From: Escherichia phage vB-Eco-KMB39
Direction: 5' to 3' (one strand)
Length of the DNA: 64,000 bases
Sequence record: OR539219.1
The notes under the pieces were generated by a model that ran no database searches, was not told the origin of the DNA, and worked only from the letters and a program-made list of their open reading frames with translations. Position numbers and translations under genes: made by a program. This document shows, piece by piece, positions 4,535 to 58,471 of the stretch (its first letter is position 1; every line of letters starts with the position of its first letter).

Positions 4535-6043
4535 ATGGATATTAAAGTACATTTTCACGACTTCAGTCATGTACGCATCGATTGTGAAGAGAGCACGTTC
4601 CACGAATTAAGAGATTTCTTTTCGTTTGAGGCAGATGGATATAGGTTTAATCCTCGCTTCAGATATGGCAACTGGGATGGACGAATCCGTCTTTTAGATT
4701 ATAATCGTCTTCTTCCGTTCGGCTTAGTCGGGCAAATTAAAAAGTTCTGCGATAACTTTGGCTATAAAGCCTGGATTGACCCTCAAATTAATGAAAAAGA
4801 AGAATTATCAAGAAAAGATTTTGATGAATGGCTTTCTAAATTAGAAATCTATTCAGGAAATAAAAGAATTGAACCACACTGGTATCAAAAAGATGCAGTG
4901 TTCGAAGGATTAGTTAATCGTCGCAGAATTCTTAATCTTCCAACATCCGCAGGTAAATCTTTAATTCAAGCTTTGCTTGCACGTTATTATTTGGAAAATT
5001 ATGAAGGTAAAATTCTTATCATTGTTCCAACAACTGCTCTGACAACTCAGATGGCTGATGACTTTGTTGACTATCGTTTATTCAGTCATGCAATGATAAA
5101 GAAAATCGGCGGCGGAGCATCAAAAGATGATAAATATAAAAATGATGCACCAGTCGTCGTTGGTACATGGCAAACTGTAGTTAAACAACCGAAAGAATGG
5201 TTCTCACAGTTTGGAATGATGATGAATGATGAATGTCATCTTGCTACAGGAAAAAGTATTTCATCTATCATATCAGGATTAAATAACTGTATGTTTAAAT
5301 TTGGTCTATCAGGTTCATTACGTGATGGCAAAGCCAATATCATGCAGTATGTTGGAATGTTTGGTGAAATATTTAAACCAGTAACGACTTCTAAATTAAT
5401 GGAAGATGGACAAGTAACTGAGCTAAAAATTAATAGTATTTTTCTTCGCTATCCCGATGAGTTCACTACTAAATTAAAGGGAAAAACTTACCAAGAAGAA
5501 ATAAAAATTATTACTGGACTCAGTAAAAGAAATAAATGGATTGCTAAATTAGCTATTAAACTTGCACAAAAAGATGAAAACGCTTTTGTCATGTTTAAGC
5601 ATGTATCACATGGTAAAGCTATTTTCGATTTAATTAAAAATGAATACGATAAAGTTTATTACGTATCAGGGGAAGTTGATACCGAAACACGCAACGTAAT
5701 GAAAACCCTAGCTGAAAACGGTAAAGGAATAATTATAGTAGCTAGTTATGGTGTATTTTCTACTGGTATTTCAGTTAAAAATCTGCATCACGTTGTTTTA
5801 GCGCACGGTGTTAAATCAAAAATCATTGTATTACAAACAATCGGTCGTGTATTACGTAAGCATGGTTCTAAGACAATAGCAACAGTCTGGGATCTTATAG
5901 ATGACGCGGGCGTAGTTTCTAAATCAAAAACATCTTCTAAAAAATACTCGCATTTAAACTATCTTTTAAAACATGGACTTGATCGTATTCAGCGTTATGC
6001 TGATGAAAAGTTTAATTATGTGATGAAAGAGGTTAAACTTTGA
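4535..6043 (+). CDS. uvsW: UvsW RNA-DNA and DNA helicase
   Basis: 502 aa; SF2 helicase motifs (Walker A region PTSAGKS, DECH box MMMNDECHLA); sequence matches recalled T4 UvsW. Confidence 0.92.
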   Translation: MDIKVHFHDFSHVRIDCEESTFHELRDFFSFEADGYRFNPRFRYGNWDGRIRLLDYNRLLPFGLVGQIKKFCDNFGYKAWIDPQINEKEELSRKDFDEWLSKLEIYSGNKRIEPHWYQKDAVFEGLVNRRRILNLPTSAGKSLIQALLARYYLENYEGKILIIVPTTALTTQMADDFVDYRLFSHAMIKKIGGGASKDDKYKNDAPVVVGTWQTVVKQPKEWFSQFGMMMNDECHLATGKSISSIISGLNNCMFKFGLSGSLRDGKANIMQYVGMFGEIFKPVTTSKLMEDGQVTELKINSIFLRYPDEFTTKLKGKTYQEEIKIITGLSKRNKWIAKLAIKLAQKDENAFVMFKHVSHGKAIFDLIKNEYDKVYYVSGEVDTETRNVMKTLAENGKGIIIVASYGVFSTGISVKNLHHVVLAHGVKSKIIVLQTIGRVLRKHGSKTIATVWDLIDDAGVVSKSKTSSKKYSHLNYLLKHGLDRIQRYADEKFNYVMKEVKL

Positions 6044-6732
6044 ATTATAAATTAATATATGATAATTTAATTAATAGAGCCCAGAATCGGGCTCGCCTTA
6101 ATGGATACACTGAAACACATCATATAATTCCTAGATGTATGGGTGGTACAAATGATAAGTGTAATTTAGTAGAACTAACGGCTGAAGAACATTTTATAGC
6201 CCATAAACTTTTAGCTAAAATTCATCCAAACCATTACGGTATAATTAAAGCTGTTATATGTATGGGGATGAATTCAAATACTCATGAAAGACACGTCAAT
6301 AAATCTTACGCATGGGAACGTCGTAAAATGGCAGAACTTCAATCCGGCGAAGGTAATCCATTTTACGGAAAACACCATACGGAAGAACATAAACAATATA
6401 TGTCAAAACTCATGAAAAGTCGTCCAATTACATGGGGAAATAAAATTAGTAAAACTAAAAGAATGAACCCAACGAAATGGACTGAAGAAGCTAAAAGATT
6501 ACATTCAATCAATCAATCGGGTAAAAATAACGGCATGTATGGAAGGAAACATTCCGCTAAATCTATTCAGAAAATTAAAGATAACATGCCAGATAATTCA
6601 GGAGCTAATAACCCAGCTGCTAAACCTATAGAAGTAAATGGTGTTAAGTATAAATGTATGAAAGATGCTTCTAAAGCTACTGGATTATCAATGTACAAAC
6701 TAAGAATACTTAGAAAAACAGTTAATTTATAA
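6040..6732 (+). CDS. Free-standing HNH homing endonuclease (Mob family) inserted after uvsW; TTG start overlapping uvsW stop
   Basis: 230 aa; N-terminus MNYKLIYDNLINRAQ...TETHHIIPRCMGGTNDKCNLVELTAEEHFIAHKLL closely parallels MobE at 33608-34339; repeated NUMOD3-like GKHHTEEHK/GRKHSAKS motifs; only in-frame start is TTG at 6040 preceded by AAAGAGG. Confidence 0.8.
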   Translation: MNYKLIYDNLINRAQNRARLNGYTETHHIIPRCMGGTNDKCNLVELTAEEHFIAHKLLAKIHPNHYGIIKAVICMGMNSNTHERHVNKSYAWERRKMAELQSGEGNPFYGKHHTEEHKQYMSKLMKSRPITWGNKISKTKRMNPTKWTEEAKRLHSINQSGKNNGMYGRKHSAKSIQKIKDNMPDNSGANNPAAKPIEVNGVKYKCMKDASKATGLSMYKLRILRKTVNL

Positions 6733-6744: not shown

Positions 6745-6757
6745 TTTGGAGAAAAAG

Positions 6758-6988
6758 ATGTTACTAGAATTTAAACAATTTCTTTATGAAGCTTCTATTG
6801 ATGAATTTATGGGTAAAATTGCCTCTTGTCAAACATTAGAAGGTTTAGAAGAACTTGAAGCTTATTATAAGAAAAGAGTTAAAGAAACTGAATTAAAAGA
6901 TACTGATGACATCTCTGTGAGAGATGCTTTGGCAGGAAAAAGAGCTGAATTAGAAGATTCAGATGATGAAGTAGAAGAAAGCTTTTAA
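6758..6988 (+). CDS. uvsW.1: UvsW.1 small acidic protein
   Basis: 76 aa from ATG at 6758 (MLLEFKQFLYEASIDEF...); matches recalled T4 UvsW.1; ORF-track start at 6746 is a TTG. Confidence 0.8.
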   Translation: MLLEFKQFLYEASIDEFMGKIASCQTLEGLEELEAYYKKRVKETELKDTDDISVRDALAGKRAELEDSDDEVEESF

Positions 6989-7239: not shown

Positions 7240-7464
7240 TTATATAACTCTCATATGCATATCAATACCCATATCTTTAGAATAAAAATATTCATCAAGA
7301 TATCCAGCAAATTTTCCTTTAATATAAAGGACATCTTCACCACACGGGTGGTCGGCCAGGATACGAATATCCTGACGCTTAAGATTATACTTTTTCATTA
7401 AGAATTGAATCTCAGTTTCAAATTCTTCTTCATAATTAAAAGCATCATCAATGCTATATCTCAT
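7240..7464 (-). CDS. Hypothetical protein (position of T4 uvsY.-1)
   Basis: 74 aa ORF immediately downstream of uvsY. Confidence 0.6.
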   Translation of the reverse strand: MRYSIDDAFNYEEEFETEIQFLMKKYNLKRQDIRILADHPCGEDVLYIKGKFAGYLDEYFYSKDMGIDMHMRVI

Positions 7465-7877
7465 TATTTTCCAGCCTCAAATGCTCGCATGTCTTGAATG
7501 TGCTTAATAGCAAATCCACGTGATTTAATAGCATCAAGAGCTCCGCTACAGAAATCTAATAAAATCCCCCAATACTGTAACGAGGTATCAACCTTTAAAA
7601 CATCCTTATCAGCTGATAGAACTGTCTTCATTTCTGATTTCTCGTAACGATCCATACTAAATTCATCACCATCTCCTCGTCCCGAGTAGTAGTCTAATTT
7701 AGCTTTAAGAGCAACTTTCTTTTGCGCGTCAATTCTAAGCATTTCCTTTTTAATACTTGAATGCTTATTAAGCCATTTACTATATAACATCACATTATTA
7801 GCTGCTTCATACTGTAATTTAGTCGAATCTATAAACACATCTTTCTTCAATTCTTCTTGAAGATCTTCTAATCTCAT
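7464..7877 (-). CDS. uvsY: UvsY recombination mediator
   Basis: 137 aa; MRLEDLQEELKKDVFIDSTKLQYEAANNV... matches recalled T4 UvsY. Confidence 0.92.
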   Translation of the reverse strand: MRLEDLQEELKKDVFIDSTKLQYEAANNVMLYSKWLNKHSSIKKEMLRIDAQKKVALKAKLDYYSGRGDGDEFSMDRYEKSEMKTVLSADKDVLKVDTSLQYWGILLDFCSGALDAIKSRGFAIKHIQDMRAFEAGK

Positions 7878-7917
7878 ATTGTTCTCTATTCAATTGTTAT
7901 TGGATGGACTTAGATTC

Positions 7918-7944
7918 ATTATACCACGTTTTAACGTGAAGCAT
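7918..7944 (-). promoter_or_regulatory. MotA-dependent middle promoter upstream of uvsY
   Basis: On minus strand: MotA box ATGCTTCA, 13 nt spacer, -10 TATAAT, about 40 nt upstream of the uvsY ATG. Confidence 0.65.
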
Positions 7945-8342
7945 TATACTCTATTACTAGAAGCCAGTTGCAGTTTTATCTGCTCAATATCATCAGGGTT
8001 ATCGATGACCGAAAAACGTATTTCTACTATCAGAGTATAATCATCATAAACGGGTATCACATTAACTGCTAATTTATCAATACGTGGCTCATAGTTTCTT
8101 ACTGCGCTTTCGATATTACGCTCAACTGTGTCAGCAGTAAGAGGAGTCATATTTTCAAAAAGCTGGTCTGATAAATCACATCCAAATTCAGGGTCAAACG
8201 GTCTTGAACCTTTTCTTGTTGTAATAATTCCCAAAAGACTGTTTTTAATTGACCTTAATCCAAGTGATCTGGAAACGTCTTTGTTCCAATCCATTTTCAT
8301 TTCCGGGTCAATGTCAGAATAAAGCTTATTAATATTTGACAT
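7944..8342 (-). CDS. 25: Baseplate wedge protein gp25
   Basis: 132 aa, same length and order as T4 gp25. Confidence 0.88.
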   Translation of the reverse strand: MSNINKLYSDIDPEMKMDWNKDVSRSLGLRSIKNSLLGIITTRKGSRPFDPEFGCDLSDQLFENMTPLTADTVERNIESAVRNYEPRIDKLAVNVIPVYDDYTLIVEIRFSVIDNPDDIEQIKLQLASSNRV

Positions 8343-25706: not shown

Positions 25707-25732
25707 ATAATAACAAATAATTCTTAAAGCAT
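25707..25732 (-). promoter_or_regulatory. MotA-dependent middle promoter upstream of gene 31
   Basis: Minus strand: MotA box ATGCTTTA, 12 nt spacer, -10 TATTAT. Confidence 0.55.
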
Positions 25733-26041
25733 TTATTTACCAATAAATTGAAGCAAATGCTCAACTTTCATACCATTAACAGAAATCAATTTGTCAATAG
25801 AAAAACCTCGCCATGCACCGAGTTCAACATCAAATATCGGAATCATATCAGTAGATTCTTTCCGAGTAGATTCAGTCAATTTACCGGTTTGCATAGTTGG
25901 CATAAAGTCAGCATCACGAGTGCCTTTCATAGTACGAATAGTACCATCAGACTTTTCAAAAACCACGTTTGAAATACCCATGGACAATTTAGTTTTCAAA
26001 ATTTCACGAATTGCTACTTTCTGTTCAGTTGTCAATTTCAT
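25733..26041 (-). CDS. Hypothetical protein (position of T4 31.1)
   Basis: 102 aa ORF. Confidence 0.6.
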   Translation of the reverse strand: MKLTTEQKVAIREILKTKLSMGISNVVFEKSDGTIRTMKGTRDADFMPTMQTGKLTESTRKESTDMIPIFDVELGAWRGFSIDKLISVNGMKVEHLLQFIGK

Positions 26042-42370: not shown

Positions 42371-42985
42371 GCAATACTCTGGGTCTTCGAGAGGTATCCA
42401 ACCTGAGTTGAAATACTTTACCATCGATTTAGCAGTTGTATCAGTTATATTTATATTACCTTTAACTCTTCGCCATCCAGGAGTTTTACCGTACAGATTA
42501 GAGGATAATAATAACACATAATTCTCGTAAGCAATATGAGATAATTTCCAAGACTCTATATTAGCTCGTGATGTTTTCCAAGGTCTAAAATCGTCACGGT
42601 TCATATAATTAGCCAATCTCATATGCTCTCTAACTTCCGGGTCTTTAGCTGGATGAGTTTCACCACTCACACCAAATCCACCACCAGCATATACCAGATT
42701 AAAATAGTCTGGATTATCTCTGGCATTTACTTCAAGTTGGTATTTTCGTTCTGCTTCAATAACATCCAAGTCATCATCAATTTGAATTATTTTAACGCTC
42801 GGTTTTTGAAGCATTACCGCATTCAAAAATCTTTTTTGTTTACATGAGCTCCAGTATTCCTTTCCGGAAGAGTCATATATTATTCCGTTCTCAAATGAGC
42901 AATTTAATTTACTACCGATATAGTAGTATGGCGGAGTCTTATTTTTGACACGGTCTTCAAATGTAAACCAATATACTATATTCAT
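42353..42985 (-). CDS. segG: GIY-YIG homing endonuclease SegG
   Basis: 210 aa; N-terminal GIY-YIG-like motif (IVYWFTFEDRVKNKTPPYYYIGSK); located between genes 32 and 59 as T4 segG. Confidence 0.7.
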   Translation of the reverse strand: MNIVYWFTFEDRVKNKTPPYYYIGSKLNCSFENGIIYDSSGKEYWSSCKQKRFLNAVMLQKPSVKIIQIDDDLDVIEAERKYQLEVNARDNPDYFNLVYAGGGFGVSGETHPAKDPEVREHMRLANYMNRDDFRPWKTSRANIESWKLSHIAYENYVLLLSSNLYGKTPGWRRVKGNINITDTTAKSMVKYFNSGWIPLEDPEYCELCQL

Positions 42986-44230: not shown

Positions 44231-45148
44231 TCAAAATTCATTAATGCTGTTAGTTAATTTAGAAAGACCCGCTTTTACAAAATATGAATAAATTTTGCCA
44301 CGCGGTGGTAATTTATATGAATTATAGTAATTCACAATGTTTGAAGCAATATTATCAGGAATATAATCAAAATCAATTAGAACTAAATTTTCTTTATAAC
44401 GATTATATTCAGATTCTGTGAGAAGCACCTTAGCTTGCTCACGGTCATTAGCAATAGCTTCAACGATTGAAGTTTTCATTGAAGGAGTTCGTTCACCTTC
44501 AACTCTGGTAAACCAAAAGTCAGATCGTACTTTAACTGAAGCAACGTTATCCTTTTTGTCGCCTTTAAGGATTTTAGTCATACAGTCAATTTCAGCAGAA
44601 CCGCTTTTAATTTTAACCCATTTCTTATGCATCGGTGACCATTGCTTAACATTTGGGTATTTGTGAAGCTGTGTAAAGTCACCATCCGACGAAATGATTA
44701 AAATTTTATGTCCTTCTAAAGAGAACTTTTTAACAAGAACAGCAATGTGGTCATCTGCTTCATACTTATCAATATCCATAACAATGTATGGCATATAAGC
44801 TTTCAATTCATCTATAACTTTATGGCTGGATTCAAAATAACCTTCCCAGTCCCAAGTAGATTCTTCTCGTGCTTTTCCGCGGTTTTTCTTGTAATAGTAA
44901 GCAAAATCACGACGCCAATATCCAGATTTCGCATTATCAATACACAGTACAATTTTAGTGTATCCAAGCGTTTTTGCTTTTTTGACATTAAACTTAATTG
45001 AGTTCAATATCAAATGACGAACCATTGATAAATTAATTTTTTCTTTATCTGGGAAGTTTACCAAAGCAGTTGAAAGCGCAATTTGACTAAAGTCAATAAA
45101 GCAAATTCCTTCTTTGTAATCTTCATCCAACATCATTTCTAAATCCAT
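44231..45148 (-). CDS. rnh: RNase H (5'-3' exonuclease / flap endonuclease)
   Basis: 305 aa from ATG at 45148 (MDLEMMLDEDYKEG...); FEN-family acidic residues. Confidence 0.9.
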   Translation of the reverse strand: MDLEMMLDEDYKEGICFIDFSQIALSTALVNFPDKEKINLSMVRHLILNSIKFNVKKAKTLGYTKIVLCIDNAKSGYWRRDFAYYYKKNRGKAREESTWDWEGYFESSHKVIDELKAYMPYIVMDIDKYEADDHIAVLVKKFSLEGHKILIISSDGDFTQLHKYPNVKQWSPMHKKWVKIKSGSAEIDCMTKILKGDKKDNVASVKVRSDFWFTRVEGERTPSMKTSIVEAIANDREQAKVLLTESEYNRYKENLVLIDFDYIPDNIASNIVNYYNSYKLPPRGKIYSYFVKAGLSKLTNSINEF

Positions 45149-45218: not shown

Positions 45219-45252
45219 CTTATTATTGAAAACACAATAGGAGCCCGGGAGA

Positions 45253-48200
45253 ATGGCCGAGATTAAAAGAAAGTTCAGAGCAGAAGATGGTCTGGACGCA
45301 GGTGGTGATAAAATAATCAACGTAGCTTTAGCTGATCGTGCCGTAGGAACTGACGGCGTTAACGTTGATTACTTAATTCAAGAAAACACAGTTCAACAAT
45401 ATGATCCAACTCGTGGATATTTAAAAGATTTTGTAATCATTTATGATAACCGCTTTTGGGCTGCTATAAATGATATTCCAAAACCAGCAGGAGCTTTTAA
45501 TAGCGTACGATGGAGAGCGTTACGTACTGATGCAAACTGGACAACTGTTTCATCAGGACCTTATCAATTAAAATCGGGCGAATCAATTTCAGTTGATACT
45601 GCAGCTGGTAATGACATTACATTTACTTTACCATCTTCTCCAATTGATGGTGATACCATCGTTCTCCAAGATATTGGAGGAAAACCTGGAGTTAATCAAG
45701 TTTTAATTACAGCTCCGGTACAAAGCATTGTAAATTTTAGAGGTCAGCAAGTACGTTCAGTACTAATGACTCATCCAAAATCACAGATAGTTTTAATTTT
45801 TAGTAATCGTCTGTGGCAAATGTATGTTGCTGATTATAGTAGAGAAGCTGTAGTTGTAACTCCTGCGAGTCTCTATCAGGCACAATCAAACGATTTTATC
45901 GTACGTAGATTTACTTCTGCTTCAGCAATTAATATTAAACTTCCAAGATTTGCCAATCATGGCGATATTATTAATTTCGTTGATTTGGATAAATTAAATC
46001 CTCTTTATCACACAATTGTTACTACATATGATGAAACAACTTCAGTACAAGAAGTTGGAACTCATTCCATTGAAGGCCGTACATCGATTGACGGTTTCTT
46101 GATGTTTGATGATAATGAGAAATTGTGGAGATTGTTTGACGGGGATAGTAAAGCACGTTTACGCATTATAACAACTAATTCTAATATTCGTCCAAACGAA
46201 GAAGTCATGGTATTTGGCGCGAATAATGGAACAACCCAAACAATTGAACTTCAGCTTCCGACTGATATTTCTGTTGGTGATACTGTTAAAATTTCCATGA
46301 ATTATATGAGAAAAGGACAAACAGTTAAAATCAAAGCTGCCGGTGAAGATAAAATTGCTTCTTCAGTTCAATTGCTGCAATTCCCAAAACGTTCAGAATA
46401 TCCACCTGAAGCTGAATGGGTGACTGTTCAAGAATTAGTTTTTAACGGCGAAACTAATTATGTTCCAGTTTTACAGCTTGCTTATATAGAAGATTCTGAT
46501 GGAAAATACTGGGTGGTACAACAAAACGTTCCAACAGTTGAAAGAGTTGATTCTTTAAATGATTCTACTAGAGCAAGATTAGGCGTAATTGCTTTAGCTA
46601 CACAAGCTCAAGCAAATGCTGATTTAGAAAATTCTCCGCAAAAAGAATTAGCAATTACACCAGAAACATTAGCTAACCGTACTGCTACAGAAACTCGTAG
46701 AGGTATCGCAAGAATAGCAACTACTGCCCAAGTGAACCAGGATACTACATTCTCTTTTGCAGATGACCTTATCATTACTCCTAAAAAGCTGAATGAAAGA
46801 ACTGCTACAGAAACTCGTAGAGGTGTCGCAGAAATTGCTACGCAGCAAGAAACTAATGCAGGAACCGATGATACTACAATCATCACTCCTAAAAAGCTTC
46901 AAGCTCGCCAAGGTTCTGAATCATTATCTGGTATTGTAACCTTTGTATCTACTGCAGGTGCTACTCCAGCTTCTAGCCGTGAATTAAATGGTACGAATGT
47001 TTATAATAAAAACACTAATAATTTAGTTGTTTCACCTAAAGCTTTGGATCAGTATAAAGCTACTCCAACACAACAAGGTGCGGTAATTTTAGCAGTTGAA
47101 AGTGAAGTAATTGCTGGACAAAGTCAGGAAGGATGGGCAAATGCTGTTGTAACGCCAGAAACGTTACATAAAAAGACATCAACTGATGGAAGAATTGGTT
47201 TAATTGAAATTGCTACGCAAAGTGAAGTTAATACAGGAACTGATTATACTCGTGCAGTCACTCCTAAAACTTTAAATGACCGTAGAGCAACTGAAAGTTT
47301 AAGTGGTATAGCTGAAATTGCTACACAGGTTGAATTCGACGCAGGCGTCGACGATACTCGTATCTCTACACCATTAAAAATTAAAACCAGATTTAATAGT
47401 ACTGATCGTACTTCTGTTGTTGCTCTATCTGGATTAGTTGAATCAGGAACTCTCTGGGACCATTATACCCTTGATATTCTTGAAGCAAATGAGACACAGC
47501 GTGGTACACTTCGTGTAGCTACACAGGTCGAAGCTGCTGCAGGAACATTAGATAATGTTTTAATAACTCCTAAAAAGCTTTTAGGTACTAAATCTACTGA
47601 AGCACAAGAAGGTGTTATTAAAGTTGCAACTCAGTCTGAAACTGTGGCTGGAACGTCAGCAAATACTGCTGTATCTCCAAAAAATTTAAAATGGATTGTG
47701 CAGAGTGAACCTACCTGGGCAGCTACTACTACAGTAAGAGGCTTTGTTAAAACTTCATCTGGTTCAATTACATTTGTCGGTAATGATACGGTAGGTTCAA
47801 CACAGCCATTAGAATCATATGAGAAAAATGGTTATGCAGTATCACCATATGAATTAAACCGTGTATTAGCAAATTATTTGCCATTAAAAGCAAAAGCTGT
47901 AGATAGTAATTTATTGGATGGTCTAGATTCATCTCAGTTCATTCGTAGGGACATTGCGCAGACAGTTAATGGTTCACTAACCTTAACCCAACAAACGAAT
48001 CTGAGTGCCCCTCTTGTATCATCTAGTACTGCTACGTTTGGTGGTTCAGTTTCGGCAAATAGTGTACTAACTATTTCTAATACTGGAACAGAAACTCATC
48101 TGATTTTTGAGAAAGGACCTCAAACTGGAACTAACCAAGCGCAGACGGTGACTATTAGAGTGTGGGGTAATCAATTTAGTGGGGAATCAGACACAACACG

Positions 48201-49122
48201 TTCTACTGTATTTGAAGTTGGTGATGAAACGTCTAATCATTTTTATTCTCAGCGCAATAAAGCCGGAAATATAACATTTAATATCAACGGTACAGTAACA
48301 CCGATAAATGTTAATGCTTCAGGAACATTGAATGCAAATGGCGTAGCAACATTTGGTAATTCAGTCACTGCAACTGGTGAAATTATTTCTCGAAGCGCAA
48401 ATGCTTTCCGTGCTATTAGCGGAAATTATGGTTTCATTGTTCGCAATGACGGGTCAGTAACGAATTTTATGCTTACTGCATCGGGTGATCAGACTGGCGG
48501 ATTTAATGGATTGCGTCCTTTAGCTATCAATAATGCATCTGGTCAAGTAACGATTGGCGAAAGCTTAATCATTGCCAAAGGTGCTACTATAAATTCAGGC
48601 GGTTTGACTGTTAACTCGAGAATTCGTTCTCAGGGTACTAAAACATCTGATTTATATACCCGCGCACCAACAACTGATACTGTAGGATTCTGGTCAATTG
48701 ATATTAACGATTCAGCCACTTATAATCAGTTCCCGGGTTATTTTAAAATGGTTGAAAAAACTAATGAAGTGACTGGACTTCCATACTTAGAACGTGGTGA
48801 AGAGGTTAAATCTCCTGGTACATTGACTCAGTTTGGTAACACACTTGATTCGCTTTACCAAGATTGGATTACTTATCCAACAACACCAGAAGCGCGTACC
48901 ACTCGTTGGACACGCACATGGCAGAAAACCAAAAACTCTTGGTCAAGTTTTGTTCAGGTATTTGACGGAGGTAACCCTCCTCAACCGTCTGATATTGGTG
49001 CTTTACCATCTGATAATGCTATAATGGGTAATCTTACTATTCGTGATTTCTTACGAATTGGTAATGTTCGCATTGTTCCTGACCCAGTGAATAAAACGGT
49101 TAAATTTGAATGGGTTGAATAA
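45253..49122 (+). CDS. 34: Long tail fibre proximal subunit gp34
   Basis: 1289 aa (same as T4 gp34); MAEIKRKFRAEDGLDAGGDKIINVALADR...; internal beta-repeat motifs. Confidence 0.93.
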   Translation: MAEIKRKFRAEDGLDAGGDKIINVALADRAVGTDGVNVDYLIQENTVQQYDPTRGYLKDFVIIYDNRFWAAINDIPKPAGAFNSVRWRALRTDANWTTVSSGPYQLKSGESISVDTAAGNDITFTLPSSPIDGDTIVLQDIGGKPGVNQVLITAPVQSIVNFRGQQVRSVLMTHPKSQIVLIFSNRLWQMYVADYSREAVVVTPASLYQAQSNDFIVRRFTSASAINIKLPRFANHGDIINFVDLDKLNPLYHTIVTTYDETTSVQEVGTHSIEGRTSIDGFLMFDDNEKLWRLFDGDSKARLRIITTNSNIRPNEEVMVFGANNGTTQTIELQLPTDISVGDTVKISMNYMRKGQTVKIKAAGEDKIASSVQLLQFPKRSEYPPEAEWVTVQELVFNGETNYVPVLQLAYIEDSDGKYWVVQQNVPTVERVDSLNDSTRARLGVIALATQAQANADLENSPQKELAITPETLANRTATETRRGIARIATTAQVNQDTTFSFADDLIITPKKLNERTATETRRGVAEIATQQETNAGTDDTTIITPKKLQARQGSESLSGIVTFVSTAGATPASSRELNGTNVYNKNTNNLVVSPKALDQYKATPTQQGAVILAVESEVIAGQSQEGWANAVVTPETLHKKTSTDGRIGLIEIATQSEVNTGTDYTRAVTPKTLNDRRATESLSGIAEIATQVEFDAGVDDTRISTPLKIKTRFNSTDRTSVVALSGLVESGTLWDHYTLDILEANETQRGTLRVATQVEAAAGTLDNVLITPKKLLGTKSTEAQEGVIKVATQSETVAGTSANTAVSPKNLKWIVQSEPTWAATTTVRGFVKTSSGSITFVGNDTVGSTQPLESYEKNGYAVSPYELNRVLANYLPLKAKAVDSNLLDGLDSSQFIRRDIAQTVNGSLTLTQQTNLSAPLVSSSTATFGGSVSANSVLTISNTGTETHLIFEKGPQTGTNQAQTVTIRVWGNQFSGESDTTRSTVFEVGDETSNHFYSQRNKAGNITFNINGTVTPINVNASGTLNANGVATFGNSVTATGEIISRSANAFRAISGNYGFIVRNDGSVTNFMLTASGDQTGGFNGLRPLAINNASGQVTIGESLIIAKGATINSGGLTVNSRIRSQGTKTSDLYTRAPTTDTVGFWSIDINDSATYNQFPGYFKMVEKTNEVTGLPYLERGEEVKSPGTLTQFGNTLDSLYQDWITYPTTPEARTTRWTRTWQKTKNSWSSFVQVFDGGNPPQPSDIGALPSDNAIMGNLTIRDFLRIGNVRIVPDPVNKTVKFEWVE
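46660..46870 (+). repeat. Near-identical direct repeats within gene 34 (tail-fibre repeat units)
   Basis: ACTGCTACAGAAACTCGTAGAGGT(A/G)TCGCA recurs about 120 bp apart, encoding ERTATETRRG(I/V)A(R/E)IAT; further degenerate copies downstream. Confidence 0.7.
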
Positions 49123-55743: not shown

Positions 55744-56016
55744 TTATTTGTTCGTATACATCTCTAGATATCGATATACACCCTCAAAACCCTCGTTGAA
55801 TTCGTCGATGAGGGTTTTCTTATCTTCTTGAGTTAATTCAGAAACAATTTTACGGAATGAATTCTGATTTAATTTTCTACCTTCATGTGTTACTCCAATC
55901 TCATTCAGAAATGCAATAAAATTAGCACGATTCTCAACAATATCTTCTCTGGAAAATTTAATCAAAATAGACGCAACAGTAATAATTTCACGAACTGTAT
56001 CAATGTTTTTATTCAT
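55744..56016 (-). CDS. asiA: AsiA anti-sigma70 factor
   Basis: 90 aa; MNKNIDTVREIITVASILIKFSREDIVENRANFIAFLNEIGVTHEGRKL... matches recalled T4 AsiA. Confidence 0.93.
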   Translation of the reverse strand: MNKNIDTVREIITVASILIKFSREDIVENRANFIAFLNEIGVTHEGRKLNQNSFRKIVSELTQEDKKTLIDEFNEGFEGVYRYLEMYTNK

Positions 56017-57835: not shown

Positions 57836-58471
57836 TCACAGTTCAGATGCTACAGTGATTACTGCTTCAATGTTTTCTGCCGAACGTTTAATGTCAAGAT
57901 ACACATTACCGTTTTTAGCGATTTTACAAGACATTCCGATATCGGTAAATTTCTGAATATGATGTTCCATCATTTTGTATCCAAAAATTCGCATGTTTCC
58001 ATTATTGTTAATTTCAAAATTGCGAATTCCGTGAGTGCGTTTTTCTAAAATAGCAAGATAGTTACTGCGGTAAGTTTCAACCTTTTTAAGAACAAATCCA
58101 TTTTCATCTAAAAGTTTTAACATGAGGTCTTTATCTTCTTCCATATCGGAAGTAATCTCACGAGCTTTACGAGTTGCTCGTTTTTTCAGTAGTTCCGGAG
58201 CATTTTCCTGCGCGTATAAAGTTGCTGCATTTGAAATAATATCCTGAGCTTCACCAGTAATGATTAATCCATCACCAGATTTCTCTACCAGGCCTTTTTT
58301 AATCAATACACCAATATTACTATTAACTACTGCGTTACCTAAATCTGGATGCACCTCACGAACTTCTGCAGCTGTAATAAAATCTTTCTTAGCAATGGTA
58401 ATTAAAATCGCAGCAGTTTTTTCATTCAGAACATCGTTAGAAGCTTTGATGATGTAAGTTACTTTAGACAT
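57836..58471 (-). CDS. motA: MotA middle-transcription activator
   Basis: 211 aa; MSKVTYIIKASNDVLNEKTAAILITIAKKDFITAAEVREV... matches recalled T4 MotA. Confidence 0.93.
   Translation of the reverse strand: MSKVTYIIKASNDVLNEKTAAILITIAKKDFITAAEVREVHPDLGNAVVNSNIGVLIKKGLVEKSGDGLIITGEAQDIISNAATLYAQENAPELLKKRATRKAREITSDMEEDKDLMLKLLDENGFVLKKVETYRSNYLAILEKRTHGIRNFEINNNGNMRIFGYKMMEHHIQKFTDIGMSCKIAKNGNVYLDIKRSAENIEAVITVASEL

Follow-up and report, generated by a model that had tools for sequence, protein, structure and literature searches.

Bacteriophage T4 possesses a replication origin at the uvsY gene, oriF or ori(uvsY), which reportedly was the subject of work by Kreuzer and Alberts in 1985, Menkens and Kreuzer in 1988, and Carles-Kinch and Kreuzer in 1997. 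[quoted passage not shown] Transcripts from the T4 origin promoters form persistent R-loops in an unwinding element (DUE), and these R-loops are in all likelihood processed by RNase H so as to prime leading-strand synthesis, with the displaced strand serving for loading of the gp41/61 primosome (PMC3016281). The DUE is not sequence-specific, and heterologous unwinding elements can substitute for it; the origins are turned off as middle transcription ends and the UvsW helicase unwinds the R-loop (PMC3016281). Ordinary T4 middle promoters (approximately 60, e.g., P31 and PdsbA) share with oriF and oriG the MotA box, the spacer of 12 ± 1 bp and the sigma-70 -10 element but, unlike these two, have no known capacity for autonomous plasmid replication.

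Parallels have been drawn between the T4-type origins and the ColE1 RNA II origin, oriK of Escherichia coli (cSDR) and the mitochondrial heavy-strand origin, in all of which a persistent RNA-DNA hybrid gives rise to a leading-strand primer made by RNase H (PMC3016281). The latter three origins, however, have unrelated sequences and employ host polymerase and factors; furthermore, ColE1 depends on a particular fold of RNA II and on G-rich contacts, whereas a T4-type origin needs only a phage-activated promoter and an easily unwound region. Here we describe the counterparts of the T4 origins in a 64,000-nucleotide stretch of DNA of Escherichia phage vB-Eco-KMB39 (OR539219.1), hereinafter the window.

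The uvsY middle promoter

Direct reading of the minus strand of the window from 7946 to 7918 gives TAATGCTTCA, followed by 13 nt and TATAAT; the reverse complement of 7918-7944, two bases shorter at the MotA box, is ATGCTTCA CGTTAAAACGTGG TATAAT. The initial annotation, made without reference to strand, had placed a MotA box, a 13-nt spacer and TATAAT at 7918-7944, and this arrangement is confirmed on the minus strand, that is, the strand of uvsY. The 10-nt MotA box TAATGCTTCA (7937..7946, minus strand) is centred near -30, is identical in T4 and agrees with the consensus reported in the literature, (a/t)(a/t)(a/t)TGCTT(t/c)A, located 12 ± 1 bp from the sigma-70 -10 element (Hinton 2010, PMC2988021). 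The first three bases of the box are also the TAA stop codon (7946..7944) of the upstream neighbour, gene 25 (baseplate wedge; 7944..8342, minus strand), which was identified from its ORF and the annotation of matching records. The 13-nt spacer CGTTAAAACGTGG (7924..7936, minus strand) contains a short inverted repeat, CACGT/ACGTG, and an extended -10 motif, TGn, in the form of TGG at 7926..7924; it leads into a perfect -10 hexamer, TATAAT, read directly at 7918..7923 on the minus strand. With its MotA box at -30, the 12 ± 1 bp spacing and no sigma-70 -35 element, the site has the makeup of a middle-mode promoter. A sigma-70 -35/-10 scan leaves it uncalled, as expected for an activator-dependent promoter that lacks a -35 element; a scan for terminators likewise gave no relevant call at the site. 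By analogy with T4, this promoter would depend on MotA.

The gene served by the promoter is uvsY (7464..7877, minus strand), which encodes the recombination mediator, as attested by a match to Pfam PF11056 (UvsY; E = 4.5e-52) and 98.5% identity to T4 UvsY. There are 40 nt between the last T of the -10 hexamer (7918) and the uvsY ATG (7877), in agreement with the distance of about 40 nt given in the initial annotation.

Two further sequence features of this region can be mentioned. The inverted repeat, CACGT(T)-AA-(A)ACGTG, occupies the promoter spacer (7925-7938, minus strand); its 5-bp arms are kept in relatives, with variation in the loop (TTAAAA vs TATAAA), and the repeat is absent from other genera. 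It was considered as a candidate terminator of gene 25 and rejected given the stem of only 5-6 bp, the lack of a T-run after it and the lack of conservation in other genera. A second, conserved AATGCTT lies within uvsY (7737-7743, minus strand) and is annotated as a 'mot box' in the T4 record M77695 (2036-2042); it is not followed by a -10 hexamer at an appropriate distance.

Correspondence to oriF of T4

Matches to the 1.1-kb region around the site are found in 514 phage records, practically all of them from Tequatrovirus, and three of these records, e.g., vB_EcoM_G10400, are 100% identical; the phage of the window is a Tequatrovirus and a close relative of T4. The MotA box, the spacer and the -10 element are those of T4 PuvsY base for base, and in the T4 record M77695 the features 'mot box' (AATGCTT) and 'TATA_box' (TATAAT) are annotated at the same bases. 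The alignment with T4 (NC_000866; 271 columns from gene 25 into uvsY) shows, besides the identical promoter, one substitution upstream of the MotA box, within gene 25, a 10-bp repeat-unit indel in the leader, and four substitutions more than 200 nt downstream. Within the minimal origin of approximately 100 bp, the sole difference is that one copy of CCAATAACAA is present in the window versus two in T4.

Transcription from T4 PuvsY starts at 115371 (Hinton 2010 Table 1, PMC2988021), 7 nt after the -10 hexamer. Transferred over the alignment, this position predicts that the uvsY mRNA, which would double as the origin-primer transcript, begins with an A at 7911 on the minus strand. In the T4 records AF158101 and NC_000866, the rep_origin feature oriF (oriuvsY) is placed at 115321, at the start of uvsY and in '(-) strand direction', and the primer RNA is stated to be the same as the transcript of gene uvsY; this point is 50 nt downstream of the start site and maps to approximately 7871 in the window. 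The gene order 26-25-uvsY-uvsY.-1-uvsY.-2 is the same as in T4. Thus, the site corresponds to the annotated T4 rep_origin both in position and in sequence.

Taken together, the element shares with T4 oriF the locus (gene 25/uvsY), the strand, the promoter, the downstream sequence into uvsY and the trans-acting genes, and differs from it in the leader, which in T4 contains two copies of CCAATAACAA and is 44 nt long but in the window contains one copy and has a predicted length of 34 nt. The claim that the architecture is that of T4 ori(uvsY) is therefore borne out, with a promoter that is 100% identical and a T4 rep_origin annotated at this very place. Judging from these sequence comparisons, it is highly probable that the element is the orthologue of the T4 uvsY middle promoter and of the overlapping oriF/ori(uvsY). 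The original designation, 'candidate origin', is apt, as firing in this phage is deduced from homology. The element is already known, and its detection here recovers, in a close relative of T4, a phage replication origin that ranks among the best characterised.

Reduced diversity from the promoter into uvsY

Scans of IMG/VR produced only a handful of T4-like loci, and accordingly the GenBank phage collection was used as well. The resulting alignment comprises 15 Tequatrovirus sequences, namely the window, T4, five IMG/VR loci and eight GenBank sequences that were picked as the most divergent in this stretch, a choice that biases the sample against conservation. The MotA box and the -10 hexamer are invariant in all 15, and only four promoter positions vary, all of them in the spacer (7929 and 7932-7934). 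Variability is low in the wider region as well: variable sites number 5 of 66 in the non-coding stretch 7878-7943 and, among the third positions within the initial 100 nt of uvsY, 2 of 33, whereas 56 of 178 flanking third positions in gene 25 and the rest of uvsY are variable. Compared with these flanks, Fisher p is 5.5e-5 for the former class of sites and 0.002 for the latter. The trough of diversity extends over 7758-7943, from the promoter to about +150, with approximately 7.5% of the sites variable versus 25-37% of the flanking third positions; put differently, neutral sites in this segment are 3-5 times less variable than flanking synonymous sites.

The trough fits a cis-acting element that extends from the promoter to about +150 but could instead come from constraint on the uvsY mRNA or its translation, or from local recombination history. 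One specific version of the former explanation is that the conservation reflects post-transcriptional control of uvsY, through mRNA structure in the leader and 5'-coding region or through ribosome binding, rather than origin function. The trough indeed takes in the leader together with ~120 nt at the start of the coding sequence, and constraint of this kind is common at the 5' ends of mRNAs. However, a search of Rfam found no known RNA element at the site, and such control would leave unexplained the plasmid-origin and R-loop data obtained in T4 for the identical sequence (PMC3016281). Moreover, post-transcriptional control is compatible with origin function and does not exclude it. We regard this explanation as possible but, on the whole, doubtful, and retain the reading of the site as a promoter with an overlapping origin.

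The promoter is recognizable outside Tequatrovirus as well. In Mosigvirus, Moonvirus (Merlin) and Karamvirus (Pet-CM3-4), the equivalent position past the stop codon of gene 25 is likewise occupied by TATAAT with a GCTT core at -30, 14-15 nt upstream of it. The -10 hexamer is invariant in these genera, too, and the leader has diverged there.

Middle promoters in the window and the counterpart of oriG

The pattern TGCTTYA-N11-13-TATAAT has 2 matches on both strands of the 64-kb window versus 0.05 expected, and the looser pattern WWTGCTTYA-N11-13-TANNNT has 5 versus 0.94, with the expected counts derived from Markov-1 random sequences that employ the transition frequencies of the window. All matches are on the minus strand, and the combination of TGCTTCA with a perfect TATAAT occurs within the window at the oriF and oriG sites only. 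In an A+T-rich genome, a motif of this kind might be a functionless chance match, and nothing else speaks for this possibility. Given the excess of the stricter pattern over expectation, the identity of the sequence to an experimentally mapped T4 promoter and the invariance of the motif in relatives, the probability of such a match is vanishingly small, and a chance origin of the motif is excluded.

Three additional consensus MotA-type middle promoters, all found by the pattern scan, are on the minus strand at 25707-25733, 42789-42815 and 44324-44350. The first precedes gene 31, with a transcript that begins ...ATGTCTGAAGTACAACAG (MSEVQQ), and is P31, as judged by the downstream ORF, gp31. The other two presumably lie in the gene 32-segG and rnh-dsbA regions, respectively, as suggested by a rough, unaligned estimate of T4 coordinates. 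Middle promoters of T4 have been listed in both of these regions (Hinton 2010, PMC2988021).

The only other strict match, TTTGCTTCA-N-TATAAT, is located at 47462..47489 on the minus strand, antisense to and in the middle of gene 34 (45253..49122, plus strand). From its sequence and position, this is the promoter of T4 P34i/oriG (ori(34)). The initial annotation had looked for a MotA box of the gene 34 origin near 45250-45600 and reported none; the predicted origin is present at 47462-47489, approximately 2.2 kb away. The ~274 nt shared with T4 differ by two substitutions in the promoter spacer, by one that precedes the MotA box by 12 nt and by another one about 134 nt downstream of the -10 hexamer. 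The T4 rep_origin oriG, annotated at 152947, maps to approximately 47391 in the window. The T4 P34i start is at 153011 (Hinton 2010, PMC2988021), and the start predicted for the window is at approximately 47455. Thus, the window contains an antisense middle promoter within gene 34, followed by an A+T-rich stretch and orthologous to T4 152947-153040; the stretch is at least 95% identical in some 498 phage records.

Similarly to oriF, oriG consists of a strict MotA-type promoter with an A+T-rich stretch downstream of it. Unlike oriF, it is antisense within a late structural gene and hence gives a transcript without a coding role, and the sequence common to the two is limited to the promoter consensus. 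Both oriF and oriG (47.46-47.49 kb) can now be annotated here and in hundreds of other Tequatrovirus genomes that have no origin features in their records. Beyond correct annotation, the significance is small: the only mildly new points are the depressed neutral-site diversity across the origin zone and a two-copy leader that is peculiar to T4.

Copy number of the leader repeat

The single CCAATAACAA unit of the window is located in the minus-strand leader at 7888-7897, and the two units of T4 are at 115338-115357 of NC_000866. When the window allele was used as the query, 483 of 499 records were at least 95% identical over 101 nt and hence have no 10-bp gap. The T4 allele, in contrast, retrieved just 14 records with at least 99% identity, all of them T4, T4T, RB55 or RB59. 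The single-copy leader is therefore the norm in Tequatrovirus, and the two-copy form is limited to T4 and its near-clones. To our knowledge, the classical ori(uvsY) experiments were all performed on the two-copy leader allele of T4. A T4 mutant clone, OL964745, carries five CCAATAACAA units; a literature search did not find a paper that names this record.

The loss of 10 bp is not expected to abolish origin function because the DUE has been reported to be sequence-independent. The copy number of CCAATAACAA might, nevertheless, tune R-loop persistence and origin strength, or else the expression of uvsY. The more far-reaching proposition, namely, that the origin zone is under a sequence-level constraint not predicted by a sequence-nonspecific DUE and that the laboratory T4 allele is atypical, seems rather unlikely to us.

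The putative downstream unwinding region

By alignment with T4, the putative downstream unwinding element, or R-loop zone, is approximately 7812..7911 on the minus strand and encompasses the predicted 34-nt leader and the first uvsY codons. The 50-100 nt downstream of +1 are 70-71% A+T, versus 64% for the whole window, and by nearest-neighbour duplex stability they rank among the weakest 5-12% of windows. The predicted oriF transcript is purine-rich (63-65%, in the top 1-4%). These values are compatible with a DUE at 7812..7911.

None of the physical properties that we considered is a sufficient criterion in itself. Nearest-neighbour stability was rejected as a predictor because the region is merely moderately unstable (top 5-12%), so that the DUE is unpredictable from stability alone. 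The difference between RNA:DNA and DNA:DNA energies, estimated with the hybrid parameters of Sugimoto 1995, was discarded as a discriminator, with oriF and oriG being unremarkable among middle promoters in this estimate. Transcript purine richness was not retained either, as oriG lacks it beyond 50 nt. GC/AT skew was dismissed as origin evidence because its profile tracks the coding strand; the cumulative skew has a local minimum at ~9 kb, near the gene 26/51 divergence. Physical properties would not identify the origin without homology.

Promoter and probable origin

A promoter alone does not make an origin, since only two of the approximately 60 T4 middle promoters act as plasmid origins (PMC3016281). 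Accordingly, the element could be the uvsY middle promoter only, with a single-copy leader that does not sustain a persistent R-loop, and early replication could proceed from oriA, C, E or G. Apart from the small share of middle promoters that are origins, this possibility is favoured by the leader being one CCAATAACAA unit short of the experimentally studied T4 allele and by the helical-stability and hybrid-energy profiles, which are not extreme. However, the T4 DUE is replaceable by heterologous elements, which makes it unlikely that removing 10 bp from a repeat with 70% A+T would abolish function; the rest of the minimal origin is identical to that of T4; the single-copy allele is the norm of the genus (~483 of 499 records); and neutral-site diversity is low across the presumed DUE. 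With these observations set against it, a promoter without origin activity appears quite unlikely. All the requirements for a T4-type origin that can be tested on sequence were found in the window, and an origin overlapping the promoter remains the preferred reading; by analogy with T4, R-loop formation and firing would be expected in this phage.

The factors that fire and silence the T4 origins are all encoded in the window, with 97.6-100% identity to their T4 counterparts. A tblastn search identified the middle-transcription activator gene motA (57839..58471, minus strand; 98.1% identity over 211 aa with T4 MotA as the query), the anti-sigma co-activator gene asiA (55747..56016, minus strand; 100% over 90 aa with T4 AsiA) and the T4 RNase H gene rnh (44234..45148, minus strand; 99.7% over 305 aa). 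UvsW is encoded by an ORF at 4535..6043 on the plus strand and shows 97.6% identity to T4 UvsW.

On the model of T4, RNA polymerase with AsiA-remodelled sigma-70 would, together with MotA, initiate near 7911 on the minus strand a few minutes after infection. The majority of the transcripts would serve as uvsY mRNA, and a fraction would remain paired with the template within the A+T-rich 50-100 bp that follow, which would create a persistent R-loop. The RNA of the R-loop might then be trimmed by RNase H to a 3'-OH, which would prime the leading strand leftward, i.e., to lower window coordinates, and gp59 would load the gp41/gp61 primosome onto the displaced strand. Late in infection, two events would silence the origin, namely, the cessation of middle transcription and the unwinding of the R-loop by UvsW. 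The second element, oriG at 47462-47489, probably follows the same logic.

Finally, between uvsW and uvsW.1 (6746-6988), the window contains a 230-aa homing-endonuclease-like ORF (6040-6732, plus strand) with NUMOD3 motifs (E = 7.6e-14). This ORF is absent in T4 and in vB_EcoM_G10400 and is found at the same place in T6 and some 48 other records. From this distribution, the window is mosaic relative to its best match at uvsY.
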